Positions 54,910-64,000 of a DNA stretch of 64,000 nucleotides are shown piece after piece. The notes below the pieces were generated by a model, which saw only the letters and a list, made by a program, of their open reading frames with translations, was not told the origin of the DNA and searched no databases. The translations under genes were made by a program, and so were the position numbers. The first letter of the stretch is position 1. Each line of letters starts with the position of its first letter. Source of the DNA: Candidatus Zixiibacteriota bacterium (GTDB taxonomy: Bacteria; Zixibacteria; MSB-5A5; CAIYYT01); assembly GCA_040235515.1 (NCBI GenBank), contig JBECKX010000179.1:15232-79231 (forward strand), in the 5' to 3' direction.

Positions 54910-55385
54910 TTGAGGAGGACCTCCTGGGTGCTTTAAGCACGGTGAATCGTTCGCGGGCAGCATCTGCTCACGAACTACCTGTAATTCGAATGCATTCGAA
55001 GCTTTGTACTTGAATGTACTTTCAGGATATAGTGCTATCCAATGCTGGGCGAGTAGCTCTTGTCAAACCATCCGATGGGTGTGTCTATCCGTAGAAGGCT
55101 GGGCGCACTTCGGGAGGGCTCTCCATCCTTCGCGCTCAATATATAGTGTCAGGTGGTTCTGTCAAGCTCATTTATCAGCAACCAATATCGCCTAACTGTC
55201 TATTTCTTAAACAGTTACGGAATTTTTCTGAAGTGACTTATAGGGTGGCGGCGCAACTACCGTTTGACAAAAGCCCTTGGCTTTGATTGATTTAGCCCGA
55301 AGAAATATTCGGGGGCGCTTTGGGAAGTTCGAGGGAAACCGATAAAATCCTATGTAGAGAGACTTCCGGATTCCTGGAGTAGCTT

Positions 55386-55898
55386 GTGCAGATTTCGCGA
55401 TACATGAGTGTCGACCTGATTCAACTCGAGATGCAGACTGAATTCATTGAGGTTGAAGAAGATGGCGCAGATATAGAGGTGACCGAAAAAGTCCTGCAGT
55501 CGCGCAAAGAGCTGCTGTTGCAGGAGTGTGTCCAGTTGCTCGATAAGTCAGGAAAAATCAGCAATCCGAGTAAGTTGTTGACCGACTTGTTCAATCGCGA
55601 AAAGAAGGCTACCACGGCGCTCGGGAAGGGGATTGCCATTCCGCATGTGCGCACTATGCAGGCGAAGGAATTCGTGATCGGATTTGCCCGCTCGACTGCC
55701 GGCTATGAGTTTGGTGCGCCTGACAACGAACGTGTCCATCTCTTCGTTCCGATGGCTGCGCCCCCCTACGATGACACTCTCTACCTCAAGGTATTCAAGA
55801 CACTCGCCGAGCTGTTTTCTTACCGGCAGTTGTATGAGCAGATCATGACAGCGGAACAACCGTACGATGTGATCCGTGCCATCCAGGAGATTGAGTAG
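55386..55898 (+). CDS. PTS EIIA type-2 domain protein (PtsN/EIIA-Ntr-like)
   Basis: The conserved His-containing motif GKGIAIPHVRT is present within a ~150 aa EIIA-2 fold. Confidence 0.6.
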   Translation: MQISRYMSVDLIQLEMQTEFIEVEEDGADIEVTEKVLQSRKELLLQECVQLLDKSGKISNPSKLLTDLFNREKKATTALGKGIAIPHVRTMQAKEFVIGFARSTAGYEFGAPDNERVHLFVPMAAPPYDDTLYLKVFKTLAELFSYRQLYEQIMTAEQPYDVIRAIQEIE

Positions 55899-56021
55899 GG
55901 AGTGGGGGAAGCCGTAAGCTGAGCAGAGCTGTTAAACTGGCTGGACAAAAGAGAAAGCAGAGTGATCCTGATGAACCACTCTGCTTTTTGTGCGATTGGG
56001 CGAAATCTCAGCGAGGATGGC

Positions 56022-58967
56022 CTACGGACATGCGCTGCAAGGCGCAGGACCACCGCCGAAGATGTAGTTAATGATGTAGACGGCATCACCAATACTCACG
56101 CTTCCACTGCAATCGGCATCACCCGCTTCGATCGGATCGGGAGCAGGTCCGCCGCCGAAGATGAAGTTGATGATATGAACGGCATCGCTGATCGAAACCG
56201 CGCCGTTGCCATCAGCATCACCACAGACCCAGGGTGGAGCCTCAAAGGTTGCATTGAGTGTTCTCAGTCCCCACGAATCCCACTCGAAACAGAGTGTGCT
56301 CGTAAGCGGGACCTGGAAAATGAGCTGTCCGAACCCACCTGACTGATCGATATAGCCAAGAGGTACCGTGTACTCGCCTGGCTGAGTGATATTCATCGTA
56401 CCGGAGCCGAGGGATGACTGCGGGCATGAGACCTGCAGCACGCCGGGCTGGGCGACATCTCTGACGTAAACGACAACTTCCATATCTTCCCACCATTGAT
56501 TAGGCCCTGGGATATCGAACTGCGCCGAGTATTGCTGGGTAGGGCCGCATGGTCCCAGGTTGCGCGGGATCTGGGAGAGGTCAAAGCCATCGGAGAATGT
56601 TTGCGAGGTTGAGTGCGAGGGTGGGAAGCCGTCGCCGAATTCGTCGGAGCTACCGTCGCGCCCACCCGCCGATCCACCGGCAAACTCGACAGGGTTAGAG
56701 GGTGTAGCCGCATCCTCCCTGTCGGGTTTTGAGGTGATGGTTACATCGGAGGTGCCTTGTGGATCGTCGAAGTGAACCCAGAAGATTCCAGTGGAATTAC
56801 TGTCGACATCGAGTACACGCGTCTCGCCGCCGGCCATATATCCGAAGCTGCCGGGGGTTGTCCAGTTCCACTCGCGGACCCGGACGCGCCTGCCATCGGC
56901 CTGTTGCTCGTATACCGTCACGTTTCCGCAGCCACCTGAGCCGTCGAATTCGAATTTCAGTTGTCCACCCTTCGGCGCCACAACCTGCTTCCAGTCGCAA
57001 TATTCCTTCAACTGATAACGCACCCAGCTATCGTTCGGATCGTTGAGCAGATTATCGTAGTAATTGGCGGTCGCGTCATCCTGATCCGCCTTTGCTCTCA
57101 GCGCAGCCCTTTGCGCCGGGGTGAGGCCGTTACCCAGTTGATCGGCGACCAGCCTGCGCCACTCGGCTCGTTCACGTGCGGCGTCGCGCGCGTCAGTCAG
57201 GTACTTCCGGTAGCAATCCTTGGCGAACTGCACACATTGCTCGTAGGTGTAACGGCCGGTCGCCAGAGAGTCAATCTTGCACTTGAGGTAAGGATGCACC
57301 TCGGTCAGCGGCGAGTCTCCGAAGGTATCGGCGCCGGAGTTGCTGTTGACATGGATTTCAGTTTTGCTCTTGTCATCGATCCCTTTCATCGCATTGACGA
57401 TCTGCCCGCCGAAGCATTGCAGCATTTCATCATACATATAGTCGCAGCAGGAGTCGATCAACTCTTGCTGCATTGCGCGCAGTTCGTCCCCGGTGAGGAC
57501 CTCGTTCTGCAACATGTTGATCCCGGTTTCGCCCCACCCCAGGACCCCTGATTTGCAGCCGTGGTTGGTCACCATTTTCTGCACTGTGGCATCTTTGCCT
57601 GCATCTTCACAGGCAGCTATCTTCTTGGCGATATCTTTGTGTGCCTTCTGGACATTTGCCTGAGTGCACGAATCGACGGCAGCGTTGGGAATCAGCGCTG
57701 TGTTCTCGCTATTGCCTTTGAAGTAGAGGATTTTGATGTTGCCGGGGCAGTAGCCCTCGTTGTTTACCTTGTGCTGATAGAGCGCCTCGATGTTCTTCCA
57801 GTACTTCGGCTTGTTCTGTCCGGCGCTGATACCGCCGCTGATCAGGATGGCGAACTTACACGAATCGCAATCCTCGGCACTTCTCTCGATGACTTCGACT
57901 CCGCCATCGTCGCCATTACTACCATCCACACTCCCCTGCGGCGGGGCAAATTCATCGAGGAAGCTGGAGCTGTCGATATAGGTGTATGATGCAGCCGTAA
58001 GGGTGAGCATCAACGAATCTTCGGGGAAAGGCGCAAGATCGTCGGGTGTCGATGAGAGCACACCGGTTGCGATCATCAGTCCGCCAAACCAATAGTTGGT
58101 GTCGGGCATCGTCCCCTCGAGAAAGATGACTGATTGGGTCGGACCATAGGTGTCCGCGATGAACACGTCATAATCGTTGACCAGTGCAGCAAAGTCGGGG
58201 TGAGTGAACTCGCCGACAACGCTGATCGTCTGTCCCTCGAGTGAATCGACTGCCTCAAAGACCTCGGCTATAGAGAAGAATTCCTTGGTGTAATAGATCC
58301 GCAGCTTTGGGCGATTGGCCGGAGTGGCATTCTCGCGGGAATCAAAACGCTTTGCGGAGGAAGAGTCGGCCTCGTTACCGATGATGATCCACCCGAAATT
58401 GCTTGCCGGGCTTGATACCCAAGCCTCAACATCGGCGACCATCTGTGCCGTTGAACCCCAGACGTAACTACCGAGACCGGCAACGCTCTGCGTGGCGGAC
58501 GGGGCCGCTTCATAGTCCCCTCCGGCTGACGCCCAGAATGTCGTATCGTAGAAGCTGTGAATCCAGGTGGCATCGTCGGCCTGCGAAGGGGCACCGGCGC
58601 CTTCCTGACCGGTGGCGTCGGAAGTACCCTCGCCCCAGGCAGATGTTACTTTGTGCAGAGAGATGGTTTCGCTGCCTGAGATTGTCTTCGACATGTTGAG
58701 GACCAACTCAACGCTGTCGATTGTCGCTCCGACCGGAAGCTGGGTGGCGACATCGAACTTAACCAGTGCCCGCCGCAGATCGAGTCCGGCGGTTGCACCT
58801 GAGAACAGGTGTGCTCCAGCACCGTTGCTGAGCGAACCTGTTATGTCTTCGTAGAGTGTATTGTCCTGAACAGCCTCGAGTTCCACTACCTGGGCGTGAA
58901 GCGCCGGGGTGGCCGGAAGCAGACAGAGCAGGGTAAGAATCAGGGCGATAGCTTTAGAACCGGTCAT
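56022..58967 (-). CDS. large secreted clan CD cysteine peptidase-like protein (legumain/clostripain-like core) with N-terminal DNRLRE-like beta domain and C-terminal double dockerin-like module
   Basis: 981 aa with a signal peptide. The central blocks are CDSCKFAILISGG, NIKILYFKG, VTNHGC and LQCFGGQ. These align by eye with the legumain blocks AVLVAGS, VVMMYDD, DHGS and EACESG. The C-terminus reads CGDADGNGAVSISDAVHIINFIFGGGPAP...GDADCSGSVSIGDAVYIINYIFGGGPAPCSACP. Confidence 0.6.
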   Translation of the reverse strand: MTGSKAIALILTLLCLLPATPALHAQVVELEAVQDNTLYEDITGSLSNGAGAHLFSGATAGLDLRRALVKFDVATQLPVGATIDSVELVLNMSKTISGSETISLHKVTSAWGEGTSDATGQEGAGAPSQADDATWIHSFYDTTFWASAGGDYEAAPSATQSVAGLGSYVWGSTAQMVADVEAWVSSPASNFGWIIIGNEADSSSAKRFDSRENATPANRPKLRIYYTKEFFSIAEVFEAVDSLEGQTISVVGEFTHPDFAALVNDYDVFIADTYGPTQSVIFLEGTMPDTNYWFGGLMIATGVLSSTPDDLAPFPEDSLMLTLTAASYTYIDSSSFLDEFAPPQGSVDGSNGDDGGVEVIERSAEDCDSCKFAILISGGISAGQNKPKYWKNIEALYQHKVNNEGYCPGNIKILYFKGNSENTALIPNAAVDSCTQANVQKAHKDIAKKIAACEDAGKDATVQKMVTNHGCKSGVLGWGETGINMLQNEVLTGDELRAMQQELIDSCCDYMYDEMLQCFGGQIVNAMKGIDDKSKTEIHVNSNSGADTFGDSPLTEVHPYLKCKIDSLATGRYTYEQCVQFAKDCYRKYLTDARDAARERAEWRRLVADQLGNGLTPAQRAALRAKADQDDATANYYDNLLNDPNDSWVRYQLKEYCDWKQVVAPKGGQLKFEFDGSGGCGNVTVYEQQADGRRVRVREWNWTTPGSFGYMAGGETRVLDVDSNSTGIFWVHFDDPQGTSDVTITSKPDREDAATPSNPVEFAGGSAGGRDGSSDEFGDGFPPSHSTSQTFSDGFDLSQIPRNLGPCGPTQQYSAQFDIPGPNQWWEDMEVVVYVRDVAQPGVLQVSCPQSSLGSGTMNITQPGEYTVPLGYIDQSGGFGQLIFQVPLTSTLCFEWDSWGLRTLNATFEAPPWVCGDADGNGAVSISDAVHIINFIFGGGPAPDPIEAGDADCSGSVSIGDAVYIINYIFGGGPAPCSACP

Positions 58968-59407
58968 GCTCTCCTCCTGGTGGTTGATGGGTGCAGGGGC
59001 GTGTGATGATGCTCGTAATCCATGTTGCCCCTCTGGATTTTACAGTAGCGAACAGAAGCGTCGGGAACCAGTGCGGGCCTATGGTTCGGCGCTGCTATCT
59101 GCTGGTGCTTTGCGCTAAAGAATCTGCGCGGACGATCTGGTTATGACTGAATTGCTGAACGTTGCTTATGGCCCCACAGGCCTTTAGTGCTCTCAGGTTC
59201 AGTATAAGTCCGTAGTTGTCTCAGGCAAGTTAAATTAGCATTTAACGATCGTTTCTGTCCATGTTTCGAACTGCGACTCGGTACGACCTATCCGATCTGA
59301 TTCGGCACAACCGATCGTGCCTGAAGCGGATTTGCGAATCCGCTCCCGACAAAGCTTCGCCAATTGCAGGCCCAACTCAGGTTGTATGCGACTCGCAGCC
59401 GGGTATC

Positions 59408-62356
59408 CTACGGGCAAGCGGCGCATGGTGCCGGTCCACCGGCGAAGATGAAGTTGATCAGGTAGACTGCATCGCTGATGCTGACTGCGCCGCTGCAGTC
59501 GGCGTCGCCAGAGGCCAGCGGATTGGGGGCCGGGCCGCCTGCAAAGATGTAATTGATGATAAAAACTGCGTCTCCGATCGAAACGGCCGTGCTGCCGTCC
59601 GCATCACCGCATAAGTATGGCGGGAATGTCTCAACCAGAGAACGCAATCCCCAGCTATCAAACTCGAAACTGGCGCCGGAGAAACTGGTGACGAACTCGA
59701 TTTCACCCGAGCCGCCCGTTGTGGCGATCGCACCCAGGTGCGCGGTATAGCGTCCGGGGCCTGAAATGGTGAGAGGCACAACGGAGTTGGCGGCCTGCGG
59801 ACATTCTATGGTCATCGGACCCGGTTGCAGCACAGTCAATACATCAAGAACGACCTCCATGTCACTCCAGTAGACGTTATCCGCCGGGATATCGAAGGAT
59901 GCAATGTAGTGATTCACACCGCTTGACCCACCTGACCCAAGATCACGCGGGCAATCACCGAGGTCGGAATCATCATTGAACGTACCGGAGGAGCCGTGCG
60001 GATCGCTGAAGGGCCCCTCGCCGAACTCCTCGGAGGAACCGTCCCGAAAACCTCGCGACCCGCCTGCGTAGCTGATCGGGTTAGATGGCGAGTCGGTACC
60101 GAATCGCGCCATGGTTGAGACAACTTCAACCGTGAAGTCGCTTCCATCGTTATGCAGGATGAACACTCCGCTGGAGCCGGTGTCGACATCGTAGTAGCGC
60201 GTGTCGTTGCCGGGCACGAATTCGTTGCTCCCCGGTAGATTCCAGTTCCATTCACGTTTCTGCACCGGGTCATCGACGCCCTCCTTTTTCTCGTACAGCC
60301 TGACGTTACCGCAGGTACCGGTACCTGAGAACTTGAAGCAGAGCTGCCCACCTTTCGGCGCTGTGACGGTGCGAGAATCGCAGTACTCATTGAACTGGAT
60401 TCGATAGAAGCGCGTACCGCAAGTATCGAGCACTCCCTGCACGACGTCGCGATAATACTCGCGATTCCGGATCTGTCGCCGCACGTTGGCGCGCTGGTCT
60501 GAGAAGAGAAAACCGGTACTATCGAGCAGCTTCAGCGAGTCGATGTCGTCGAGGGCGTCATCGAGCCATTTCATCAGAGTGTCTTTGAAGCAGTGCATTC
60601 CAAAAGTCACGCACTCTTCATAGCTGTAGCGACCGGTTGCCAACGAGTCAAGCTTGCAACGGACGTAATCGTGCACAATGTTGTTCTGTGAAGGCACCGG
60701 GAGACTGCCGAGCGCGGGAGAATTGACGTGGATCTCCGTTTCGCTGCTGTCTGCCAGGGACTTCAGATCCTCAACCTGAATACCGCTGAAGCAATGGGTG
60801 AGCTCCACGAACATAGAATCGGCGCCTGAGTCGATCAGTTTCTGCTGATTGGCTCGCAATTCCGCCGGGGTCAGCACGCTGTCGGCGCAGAGGAGGCAGG
60901 TTCCGGTCTTCGCTGGGTCTGACGGATCGAGCACACCGTGATTACCGACGAACGTGTAGGCTATCCCGGACGAATCGCAGTTTGCCAGCCTGGCTGCGGC
61001 CTGGTCATACGCCCAGTTGATCGAATCCCGAGAACATTTGAATACCCGGTTGTCCGGAACGCTGATTATGCCGGCGCTCCCCGGAACGCCATCGTAGTAC
61101 AGCACCCAGATATTCTCCGGGCAGAGATTGGCAGAATTGACGAGGTAGTCATAGTTTTTCTCGAGAGTCGCCCAGTAACCCTCTTTGTTCTTGGCTTCGT
61201 CAATTCCCCCGCTGATCAGGACCGCCACTTTGCAGCTGTCGCAGTCATCAAGTTTTTGCAGGCTGCTTGAGACCGGTGGGTGGGGTGAATAGGCTTTTGC
61301 GGCCTTGGCGGTACCACCTTCGAGTCCGAAGGGATGAATCAGGTCATACCCCGAGACGCTCAAGCTGAGTTGTTTGTCATTGAGCGGCGCGGTGCACTCC
61401 AGAATCGGATCAACCGAGAGAATCCCATGAGCGACTACCAAGCCGCCATACCAGTAGTCGGAGGGGGGATAAGCTCCGGTGATAAAGACGTTGCTCCAGG
61501 GAGGCATCGGCGTGTCGAGCTTGTATGCCGCGTAGTCGGTGACAAAGAGCGGCACTTGGTCTGAAATGAACTCGCCAACTATAGAGACAGACATTCCATC
61601 GAGTGAGTCCGCCCATTCATAAGCACGCGGAATATCAATGAAGTCAAACGCGCAGGTGGCGTCGAAGTTATCGACGGCAAGGGTTCGAATCCAGACCTGA
61701 CCGGGATACCCCTGGTCGAACAGGTCGGAGAGGGTACCATCCTTGAGCCGGTAGCTGGTACATGGACCGGGCAGCGTATCGACGAACATATCAAAGCAGC
61801 TTACCGGGTTATTCAGCTTATAGCTGATAAAGAAGTCACCTGAGATGCAGAGTGTATCGGTGAACAGGGCCGTGACGACGCCACAGGTGGGTCCGCCGGG
61901 TGAGGTTAGCAATCCTGTGGCTGTTTCGTAGAGGAGAGCGCCCGGCTGGGGACATTCGATTCCAGCTGCATCGTAAATTTCAAAGGAAATCTGAGTCGTG
62001 CAAGCCGACGAGACACAAACTACGAATTGCAGACCGATGATTCCGATCGGCAGAGTAGGTTCACAAGTCGACAGATCGATGTCCTGAAACCGGAAATACG
62101 ATTCTTCGCCGGTGATTTCACCAAACAGTTGTAATCCGAGGTCTCCCGGATAAGGGAGAGCGCATTCGGCCTGAGTGGAGCGAGTGTCGATCTGGCCAGT
62201 GCCCGCGATTTCTTCGAAGGTTATCAGAGGGCTATTGGATTTGTCGGTAGCCGCTCGCTGCAAGTTCTCTCGCGGATCAGAAGCGTTCGAAGCCGCCATC
62301 AAAAGCGGCAAGACCAGAGTCGCGGCCAGGATGATACACCTGCGCAAGAAATTCAT
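59408..62356 (-). CDS. paralogous large secreted clan CD cysteine peptidase-like protein with Cys-rich N-terminal region and C-terminal double dockerin-like module
   Basis: 982 aa with a signal peptide. It shares the central core (CDSCKVAVLISGG, NIWVLYYDG, FVGNHGV, THCFSG) and the C-terminal module (CGDADGSTAVSIGDAVFIINYIFAGGPAP...CSGAVSISDAVYLINFIFAGGPAPCAACP) with the upstream paralog. Confidence 0.6.
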   Translation of the reverse strand: MNFLRRCIILAATLVLPLLMAASNASDPRENLQRAATDKSNSPLITFEEIAGTGQIDTRSTQAECALPYPGDLGLQLFGEITGEESYFRFQDIDLSTCEPTLPIGIIGLQFVVCVSSACTTQISFEIYDAAGIECPQPGALLYETATGLLTSPGGPTCGVVTALFTDTLCISGDFFISYKLNNPVSCFDMFVDTLPGPCTSYRLKDGTLSDLFDQGYPGQVWIRTLAVDNFDATCAFDFIDIPRAYEWADSLDGMSVSIVGEFISDQVPLFVTDYAAYKLDTPMPPWSNVFITGAYPPSDYWYGGLVVAHGILSVDPILECTAPLNDKQLSLSVSGYDLIHPFGLEGGTAKAAKAYSPHPPVSSSLQKLDDCDSCKVAVLISGGIDEAKNKEGYWATLEKNYDYLVNSANLCPENIWVLYYDGVPGSAGIISVPDNRVFKCSRDSINWAYDQAAARLANCDSSGIAYTFVGNHGVLDPSDPAKTGTCLLCADSVLTPAELRANQQKLIDSGADSMFVELTHCFSGIQVEDLKSLADSSETEIHVNSPALGSLPVPSQNNIVHDYVRCKLDSLATGRYSYEECVTFGMHCFKDTLMKWLDDALDDIDSLKLLDSTGFLFSDQRANVRRQIRNREYYRDVVQGVLDTCGTRFYRIQFNEYCDSRTVTAPKGGQLCFKFSGTGTCGNVRLYEKKEGVDDPVQKREWNWNLPGSNEFVPGNDTRYYDVDTGSSGVFILHNDGSDFTVEVVSTMARFGTDSPSNPISYAGGSRGFRDGSSEEFGEGPFSDPHGSSGTFNDDSDLGDCPRDLGSGGSSGVNHYIASFDIPADNVYWSDMEVVLDVLTVLQPGPMTIECPQAANSVVPLTISGPGRYTAHLGAIATTGGSGEIEFVTSFSGASFEFDSWGLRSLVETFPPYLCGDADGSTAVSIGDAVFIINYIFAGGPAPNPLASGDADCSGAVSISDAVYLINFIFAGGPAPCAACP

Positions 62357-63060
62357 TTAACCCTCCAATGCATTGATTGTCAGAGATCGCCAAAGATCGT
62401 CAAATCGCATTCTGGATGCGGTCGGGACCTGTTTCTATTATCGATTTTGAAGTCGTTTCGCGCATTGACCCGAACGGTCCGGTTGTTGCCGGCATCCGCA
62501 AGACAGCTCTGGCGTATCACCGACGAAAGACAGGTTGCATGAGCATCTCCGAAGATGTCCCACCTGCTAACACCCAATAACAACAGGGCAACAGAACCGG
62601 GAGATAGAGCGTGCGAGCCTGCCCGGTAGGTTCGGCGGCTGCGGGAATACCGGTTTTCAGCACTACAGCAAAGGCGCTGCGATGAAGCTTTGAGCCGCCG
62701 GGAACACGGTGCCAGACGCGCGTTGCTCAAACTGCCTGCTTTTGCATCTCTTGTCTATTGAATAGTTGTTGCTTGATAGCAACTTAGTTACAGAGGCGAA
62801 TCAAGTCAAGATCGAACTTATCTCACCATGATAGGGTGGGGAAAAATCGGTTGACAAAGGATAGGGGTCAACGTAAAATGCTCATTCTTAATTGCGCAAG
62901 TAATGGGAGTAGTGCGTCTATTAATTTCAGGCAGAGCATTCCAAAGACACTCCGTTTAACACTACTGAAGTGTATTCTGCAGTGTGACTCACGTTTTGCC
63001 TGTGGAAACAGCCTTTGTCCAAGACGCGGCAGCATAAGAACTTACAAACATGGTTGGTAG

Positions 63061-64000
63061 ATGGAGATGGTGATGAGATTTTGCAAATTGTCGTTACTCA
63101 CGCCACTGCTGGTGGTTGTCTGGTGTGGAGTCGTGGTGGCAGGAGGATGGCAGTACACCGGAGTGGGCGCGCGCGCCAAGTCGATGGGGAACGCATTTAG
63201 AGCTATCTCGGCTGACGCGAGTAACGCGTACTACAATCCTGCTGGGCTCGCATATCTGGAGACTCATATATTTTCAGGAACTGTAGAGTTGCATGGTCCT
63301 CGACCGGAGTTGGATCCGAATTTCAATTCCGCGGGCTACAACTTTGGGTACTTGAATGGCGAGACGCGTTATCCTTTCGATGAAGTTTATGCGATGGGAA
63401 CAGCGTCGCTCTATTTTCAGCCCAAGGGCATACCGAATCTGGTCCTGGGTGGCTCAGTGTATCAGGCTTATGATCACAACGCCGTATGGAACCTGTTCAG
63501 CATTTCCCCCGCGTACAACGCCAATGCCAGTATAGTGGAGGAGAATCATCGCTCGAACTTTGATGTTGTGACATTCCAGCCGACGGTCGCCTACAAGTTT
63601 TCTGATGACAAGATCGCGGTCGGAGTCGGTGTGCAGATTCACCGTGGCGACGCCTGGCTCGATCAGGTCAGGTTGCTCGACAACCCGTATCAATACCCGC
63701 TTGATGTCCGCCCGATGGACAAGCTGCCCGAAGCTTACTCGGTGGACGGCTACGGCTACTCGGTTGGAGCCAACATCGGCGTGCAGGTGAAGCTCAATGA
63801 GAAAGTAACTCTGGGAGCGAACTACAAATCGAAGTCGACGATGACGATCGATGGTGCCAGCGTGGAACGAATCTTCTTCCCGCTCAACCCCGGAATCGCC
63901 GCTCTCTACAACGACCCGAGCGTGAACAACAATCCTGAGCAGTTGGAGATCTTCACGACCTATTCAACCGGCCCGGAGTATGTTGTCCTGAGCGATTTCG
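63061..64000 (+). CDS. FadL/OmpP1/TodX-like outer-membrane beta-barrel protein, partial (the 3' end runs off the right edge)
   Basis: The open frame runs from the ATG at 63061 to the window end. It has a signal peptide and then GVGARAKSMGNAFRAISADASNAYYNPAGLA, which is typical of the FadL family N-terminus. It is absent from the ORF track because no stop is reached. Confidence 0.5.
   Translation, partial: MEMVMRFCKLSLLTPLLVVVWCGVVVAGGWQYTGVGARAKSMGNAFRAISADASNAYYNPAGLAYLETHIFSGTVELHGPRPELDPNFNSAGYNFGYLNGETRYPFDEVYAMGTASLYFQPKGIPNLVLGGSVYQAYDHNAVWNLFSISPAYNANASIVEENHRSNFDVVTFQPTVAYKFSDDKIAVGVGVQIHRGDAWLDQVRLLDNPYQYPLDVRPMDKLPEAYSVDGYGYSVGANIGVQVKLNEKVTLGANYKSKSTMTIDGASVERIFFPLNPGIAALYNDPSVNNNPEQLEIFTTYSTGPEYVVLSDF

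Follow-up and report, generated by a model that had tools for sequence, protein, structure and literature searches.

Clan CD cysteine peptidases have endopeptidase activity with a specificity dominated by the P1 residue (PMC12445089), and their catalytic His, followed by Gly, and Cys lie in this order just past the C-terminal end of each strand that corresponds to β3 or β4, respectively (PMC4357240). Legumain (family C13, PF01650; human 4aw9, plant VPE, and OaAEP1) shares with the two proteins reported here the Asn-His-Cys order and the His-Gly and x-Cys-x-x-Gly motifs; like them, it is exported and has disulfides, which are predicted in our proteins. Unlike legumain, the two proteins lack the LSAM and carry instead a two-helix hairpin insert, an N-module, a two-sandwich C-module, and a dockerin. 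The closest analogy in lifestyle is provided by the gingipains (C25) and clostripain/PmC11 (C11), exported bacterial clan CD enzymes in which the catalytic part is followed by Ig-like or adhesin domains; gingipains end in a T9SS CTD, and so do some members of the family described below. Metacaspases and caspases (C14) and the MALT1 paracaspase are cytoplasmic regulatory proteases, in contrast to the exported, multi-domain proteins of this locus. Bacterial relatives of legumain are, to our knowledge, essentially uncharacterised, and literature searches returned no paper describing a C13 enzyme from bacteria that is legumain-like or dockerin-tagged.

The window analyzed was a 64,000-nucleotide stretch of a Candidatus Zixiibacteriota contig, and all features located below lie on its minus strand. 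The ORF list confirmed the two large genes reported by the initial annotation: gene A (56022..58967) with an ORF of 981 aa and gene B (59408..62356) with one of 982 aa. Each encodes a signal peptide, an N-module, a legumain-like core, a C-module, and a dockerin, preceded in A by a DNRLRE domain and in B by a Cys-rich DUF7451-like N-terminus; B is identical in sequence to database protein P0001. Residues 229-981 of A and 238-982 of B aligned with 43% identity over 762 columns (BLASTP, E = 0), and the N-terminal approximately 230 residues gave no alignment. The two are thus paralogs, as had been proposed, but they are old and unequal ones rather than the product of a recent tandem duplication. 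Taken as a whole, A and B are probably Sec-exported modular clan CD cysteine endopeptidases with a caspase/legumain-fold core, representing a divergent and unannotated bacterial branch related to C13 (legumain/GPI8).

Sec-type signal peptides were assigned by eye, by reading the protein termini, to residues 1-25 of A (58893..58967) and residues 1-26 of B (62279..62356; MNFLRRCIILAATLVLPLLMAASNAS). In both, a basic n-region is followed by a hydrophobic core and then by small residues at the cleavage region. The regions that follow have diverged, as the initial annotation had described. Residues 52-224 of A (58296..58814) form a DNRLRE domain (NCBIfam NF033679; 60.5 bits, curated cutoff 34, E 2e-16). 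The solved DNRLRE domain 8wab is a glycan-binding module. Residues 27-237 of B (61646..62278) constitute the Cys-rich DUF7451-like region; 11 Cys occur in the first 237 residues of B and one in the first 228 of A. The DUF7451 assignment (PF24248) is precomputed for P0001, whereas hmmscan of B itself at E ≤ 10 did not recover it; P0005 and P0007, whose N-termini share 39% identity with this region, are both weak, sub-threshold DUF7451 matches. The family-specific N-module precedes the core in both proteins (B residues 238-360, 61277..61645; A residues 229-354, 57906..58283, aligned with that of B) and co-occurs with it in most members. It had no Pfam or PDB match, and a weak OB-fold match was obtained in one of 24 members.

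The legumain-like core spans residues 361-661 of B (60374..61276), including a two-helix hairpin insert at 579-645, and residues 355-659 of A (56991..57905), which is a member of the 39-sequence core alignment (A2). The four ordered clan CD blocks were found in both proteins: VAVLISGG (377-384), IWVLYYDG (416-423), NHG (472-474), and CFSG (522-525) in B, and FAILISGG (372-379), IKILYFKG (411-418), NHG (468-470), and CFGG (518-521) in A, with the Cys 49 residues after the His in each. The block-by-block parallel with legumain proposed earlier was reproduced by hhalign, which paired KVAVLISGG with KHWVVIVAGS, ENIWVLYYDG with EQIVVMMYDD, NHG with DHG, and HCFSG with ACESG. In this alignment, B Asn390 (61187..61189) corresponds to legumain Asn42, the third catalytic residue, B His473 (60938..60940), the putative catalytic His, to His148, and B Cys522 (60791..60793), the putative nucleophile, to Cys189, that is, to the complete Asn42-His148-Cys189 set of C13. 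The putative catalytic set of A is Asn385 (57813-57815), His469 (57561-57563), and Cys518 (57414-57416).

Structure prediction agreed with the caspase-hemoglobinase fold that had been anticipated. The AF2 model of the core (pLDDT 92.4, pTM 0.90) has a caspase-type central β-sheet in an α/β/α sandwich, and the top four Foldseek matches were legumains. According to DSSP, strand β3 (104-111, model numbering) is followed by His113-Gly114, with the His two residues past the strand end, and strand β4 (152-159) by Cys162, three residues past its end; the B core model thus has the His-Gly-then-Cys order of clan CD after these two strands. Two further pairs of Cys residues co-vary in the family: 372-412 was both present, both absent, or discordant in 60, 17, and 2 segments and 375-460 in 74, 3, and 2, respectively. 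These pairs would be disulfides that stabilise the exported enzyme. A single four-Cys zinc site formed by Cys372, Cys375, Cys412, and Cys460 was considered and is less likely, because the 375-460 pair is retained in 15 segments that lack 372-412.

The sequence link of the core to C13 is transitive rather than direct and runs through core-only relatives. PF01650 had no match in A or B at E ≤ 10, and a profile of the full-architecture proteins gave only a weak match to human legumain alone (hhalign probability 7.7%). Two core-only relatives scored above the Peptidase_C13 gathering score of 22.9 (P0119, 24.0 bits; P0139, 29.0 bits), and the full-architecture profile matched the C13-positive P0151 at 97.3% and E 2.2e-11 (hhalign). 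A mixed profile reached human legumain at E 2.2e-5 with the Asn, His, and Cys aligned, the legumain sequence being checked against the PDB. The bacterial core-only Peptidase_C13 homologs (P0119, P0139, P0151, and relatives) are homologous to the full-architecture clade in the core (hhalign 100%, E 5.5e-42) and share with A and B the Cys375-Cys460 pair, the His-Gly, and the Cys. They have neither the N-module nor the helical hairpin, and neither the C-module nor the Cys372-Cys412 pair, and bear other additions (DUF6517, TSP_3 repeats, or a T9SS CTD).

An assignment of the core to C14 (metacaspase/orthocaspase) instead of C13, which would change the classification and leave the chemistry the same, is improbable. 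B Cys522 also aligns with the catalytic Cys of metacaspase-4, and this protein was the only match of the core profile in the PDB, at a marginal E of 0.05. Against C14, Peptidase_C14 was absent from the best 25 of 28 families for the 39 core segments (E ≤ 0.1), among which Peptidase_C13 was the only recurrent one (7 of 39 segments, best 1.3e-7); the profile matches that connect the core with C13-positive relatives and with legumain, together with the legumains heading the Foldseek matches, also point away from C14. C11 (clostripain) and C25 (gingipain), with their extended central sheet, were not found to be the closest structural relatives.

A and B differ from characterised C13 enzymes. The C-terminal activation peptide and the LSAM (death-domain-like) prodomain of C13 were not found in either protein. 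Nor was the zwitterionic S1 pocket that confers Asn/Asp specificity in C13 (Arg44, His45, Ser216, and Asp231) recovered in the sequence alignment, a comparison that covers Arg44 and His45, as Ser216 and Asp231 fall outside the reliable hhalign stretch. The positions aligned with Arg44 and His45 are non-conserved or non-equivalent (Glu392 and Tyr394 of B, in the consensus N-h-p-r-Y-W), and asparaginyl specificity is therefore not to be assumed.

The core is followed by a C-module of two β-sandwiches, an Fn3/Ig-like domain and a CBM-like jelly roll (B residues 662-913, 59618..60373; A residues 660-912, 56232..56990). The module of A, identified by an HMM match, is 47% identical to that of B (alignment A3), and the model of the C-module (pLDDT 94.8) had CBM-like structural matches. 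Many T9SS cargo proteins also carry this CBM-like two-sandwich module alone.

Both proteins end in a type I dockerin, at residues 914-982 of B (59411..59617; PF00404, 24.5 bits against 22.9), which ends in GGPAPCAACP, and residues 913-981 of A (56025..56231; PF00404, 24.7 bits against 22.9; PDB dockerins, E 3.6e-5). The Dockerin_1 match spans profile positions 2-56 of 57. By direct reading, the calcium loops DADGNGAVSISD and DADCSGSVSIGD carry D1, D3, N/S5, and D12 in the DxDxS/N...D pattern. The dockerin-like end shared by A and B was correctly recognized in the initial annotation, but what was called a double module is one type I dockerin with its two canonical calcium-loop repeats. A and B resemble non-cellulosomal dockerin-tagged enzymes (PF00404) in the profile match and in both intact loops, and differ in that their dockerin is a Cys-bearing variant (CGDADG..., DADCSG..., and C-x-x-C at the very end). 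An M43 peptidase of the window has the same tail, as does an S8 peptidase in L005, and no cohesin was detected among the scanned proteins of the window. Family members P0014 and P0017 have a T9SS CTD in place of the dockerin; a T9SS sorting domain is absent from A and B, and we infer that the source organism carries a T9SS. Gene conversion between A and B was considered as a cause of the similarity of their dockerins and rejected: at the DNA level the two share only 70% identity and differ at many synonymous sites, and the dockerins found in other organisms are just as similar.

In the proposed mechanism, the His would activate the Cys thiol for attack on the scissile bond after the P1 residue. 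The S1 pocket would differ from that of legumain, and P1 is probably not asparagine. The CBM-like C-module, together with DNRLRE in A, may keep the enzyme bound to material rich in glycans, for example cell walls, glycoproteins, or matrix, and a cohesin-like partner at the cell surface may anchor it through the calcium-binding dockerin. The likely role would be extracellular protein degradation for nutrition, beside further peptidases with a dockerin tag that this genome encodes.

Clan CD enzymes can also join rather than degrade proteins, as do GPI transamidase and the plant peptide asparaginyl ligases, which belong to C13, and PorU, the sortase of the T9SS. A and B might accordingly be transpeptidases, ligases, or processing enzymes that attach or mature specific surface proteins, and hydrolysis and ligation are not separated by the sequence. 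This reading is nevertheless given a low probability. The neighborhood is not conserved across loci, and no conserved operon partner was found beyond the closely related genome L003. In addition, the CBM-like, DNRLRE, cupredoxin, and Big_9 additions and the dockerin or T9SS tails are what secreted enzymes with a degradative role usually carry.

The putative catalytic residues were also examined across the family, and the earlier proposed His/Cys dyad proved to be conserved there. Among 79 homologous core segments, the His was kept in 75, the following Gly in 78, the Cys in 75, and the Asn at the B390 column in 63. In the 39-sequence core alignment, C15, G63, C100, H113, G114, and C162 (model numbering) were invariant, B His473 among the invariant positions, and A keeps every conserved core site (pattern CCNCCHGCG). 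The motifs are far beyond chance, with the same columns conserved over the 79 segments. The His or the Cys is lost in four of the 79, indicating that non-catalytic roles exist within the family; a caspase-like domain serving as a non-catalytic scaffold or binding domain, as in the pseudo-peptidases Raptor and c-FLIP, is highly unlikely for A and B themselves, which keep the Asn, His-Gly, Cys, and the Gly after the Cys, the most conserved columns of the family (mean column identity 31%).

An exhaustive HMMER search showed that the family comprises 329 cluster representatives, 78 of them at E ≤ 1e-30. Such a search was needed, as word-indexed homolog searches with the body of B or the A2 profile yielded no more than the query itself or three proteins. 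The remark that enzymes of this architecture are not standard annotations proved accurate. No peptidase family was found in A or B in Pfam or NCBIfam scans, even at E ≤ 10, or in a PHROGs scan; Pfam and NCBIfam label only the dockerin in both and DNRLRE in A, and PDB sequence searches with A or B alone returned dockerins only. A few hundred sequence clusters that make up one family thus have no peptidase label in current Pfam and NCBIfam models, and protease inventories of the uncultured carriers therefore undercount clan CD enzymes. This is a solid gain in annotation; it overturns no known principle and does not constitute a new kind of system.

In this family, nature has joined a single catalytic body to exchangeable domains for targeting (DNRLRE, DUF7451-like, cupredoxin, and Big_9) and to exchangeable anchors (a dockerin or a T9SS CTD); the family also offers the uncharacterised CBM-like two-sandwich module. 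A further offering is a legumain-fold scaffold whose S1 pocket, as judged from the alignment, would be different, which is of interest because legumain-type enzymes serve as site-specific proteases and peptide ligases.

In the related genome L003, the same locus contains one such peptidase gene; its neighbors are 56-81% identical to those of the window, and the peptidase only 39%. A locus search with alignment A1 returned one locus, in an Ignavibacteriales MAG. The differing N-terminal targeting domains and the fast divergence suggest different substrates or targets on one scaffold. On a broader and distinctly tentative view, which we consider rather doubtful at present, the full-architecture clade (N-module, hairpin-bearing core, and two-sandwich C-module) would merit a MEROPS-level clan CD family or subfamily of its own, with a P1 preference unlike that of legumain, displayed on the surface of uncultured T9SS-bearing bacteria through a non-cellulosomal, Cys-stabilised dockerin and shaped by diversifying selection on substrate or target recognition. 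If so, the far faster divergence of these genes than of their neighbors at a conserved locus, and the additional copy gained here, whose targeting domain is new, would be the signs of such selection.

Regarding expression signals, a Shine-Dalgarno-like AGGAGG or GGAGGG lies 5-7 nt 5′ of both starts, and no structured RNA was identified by Rfam in 55000-64000. A consensus scan located a terminator-like hairpin with a 15-bp stem followed by a T-rich tail at 55954..55987, 35 nt past the stop codon of A.

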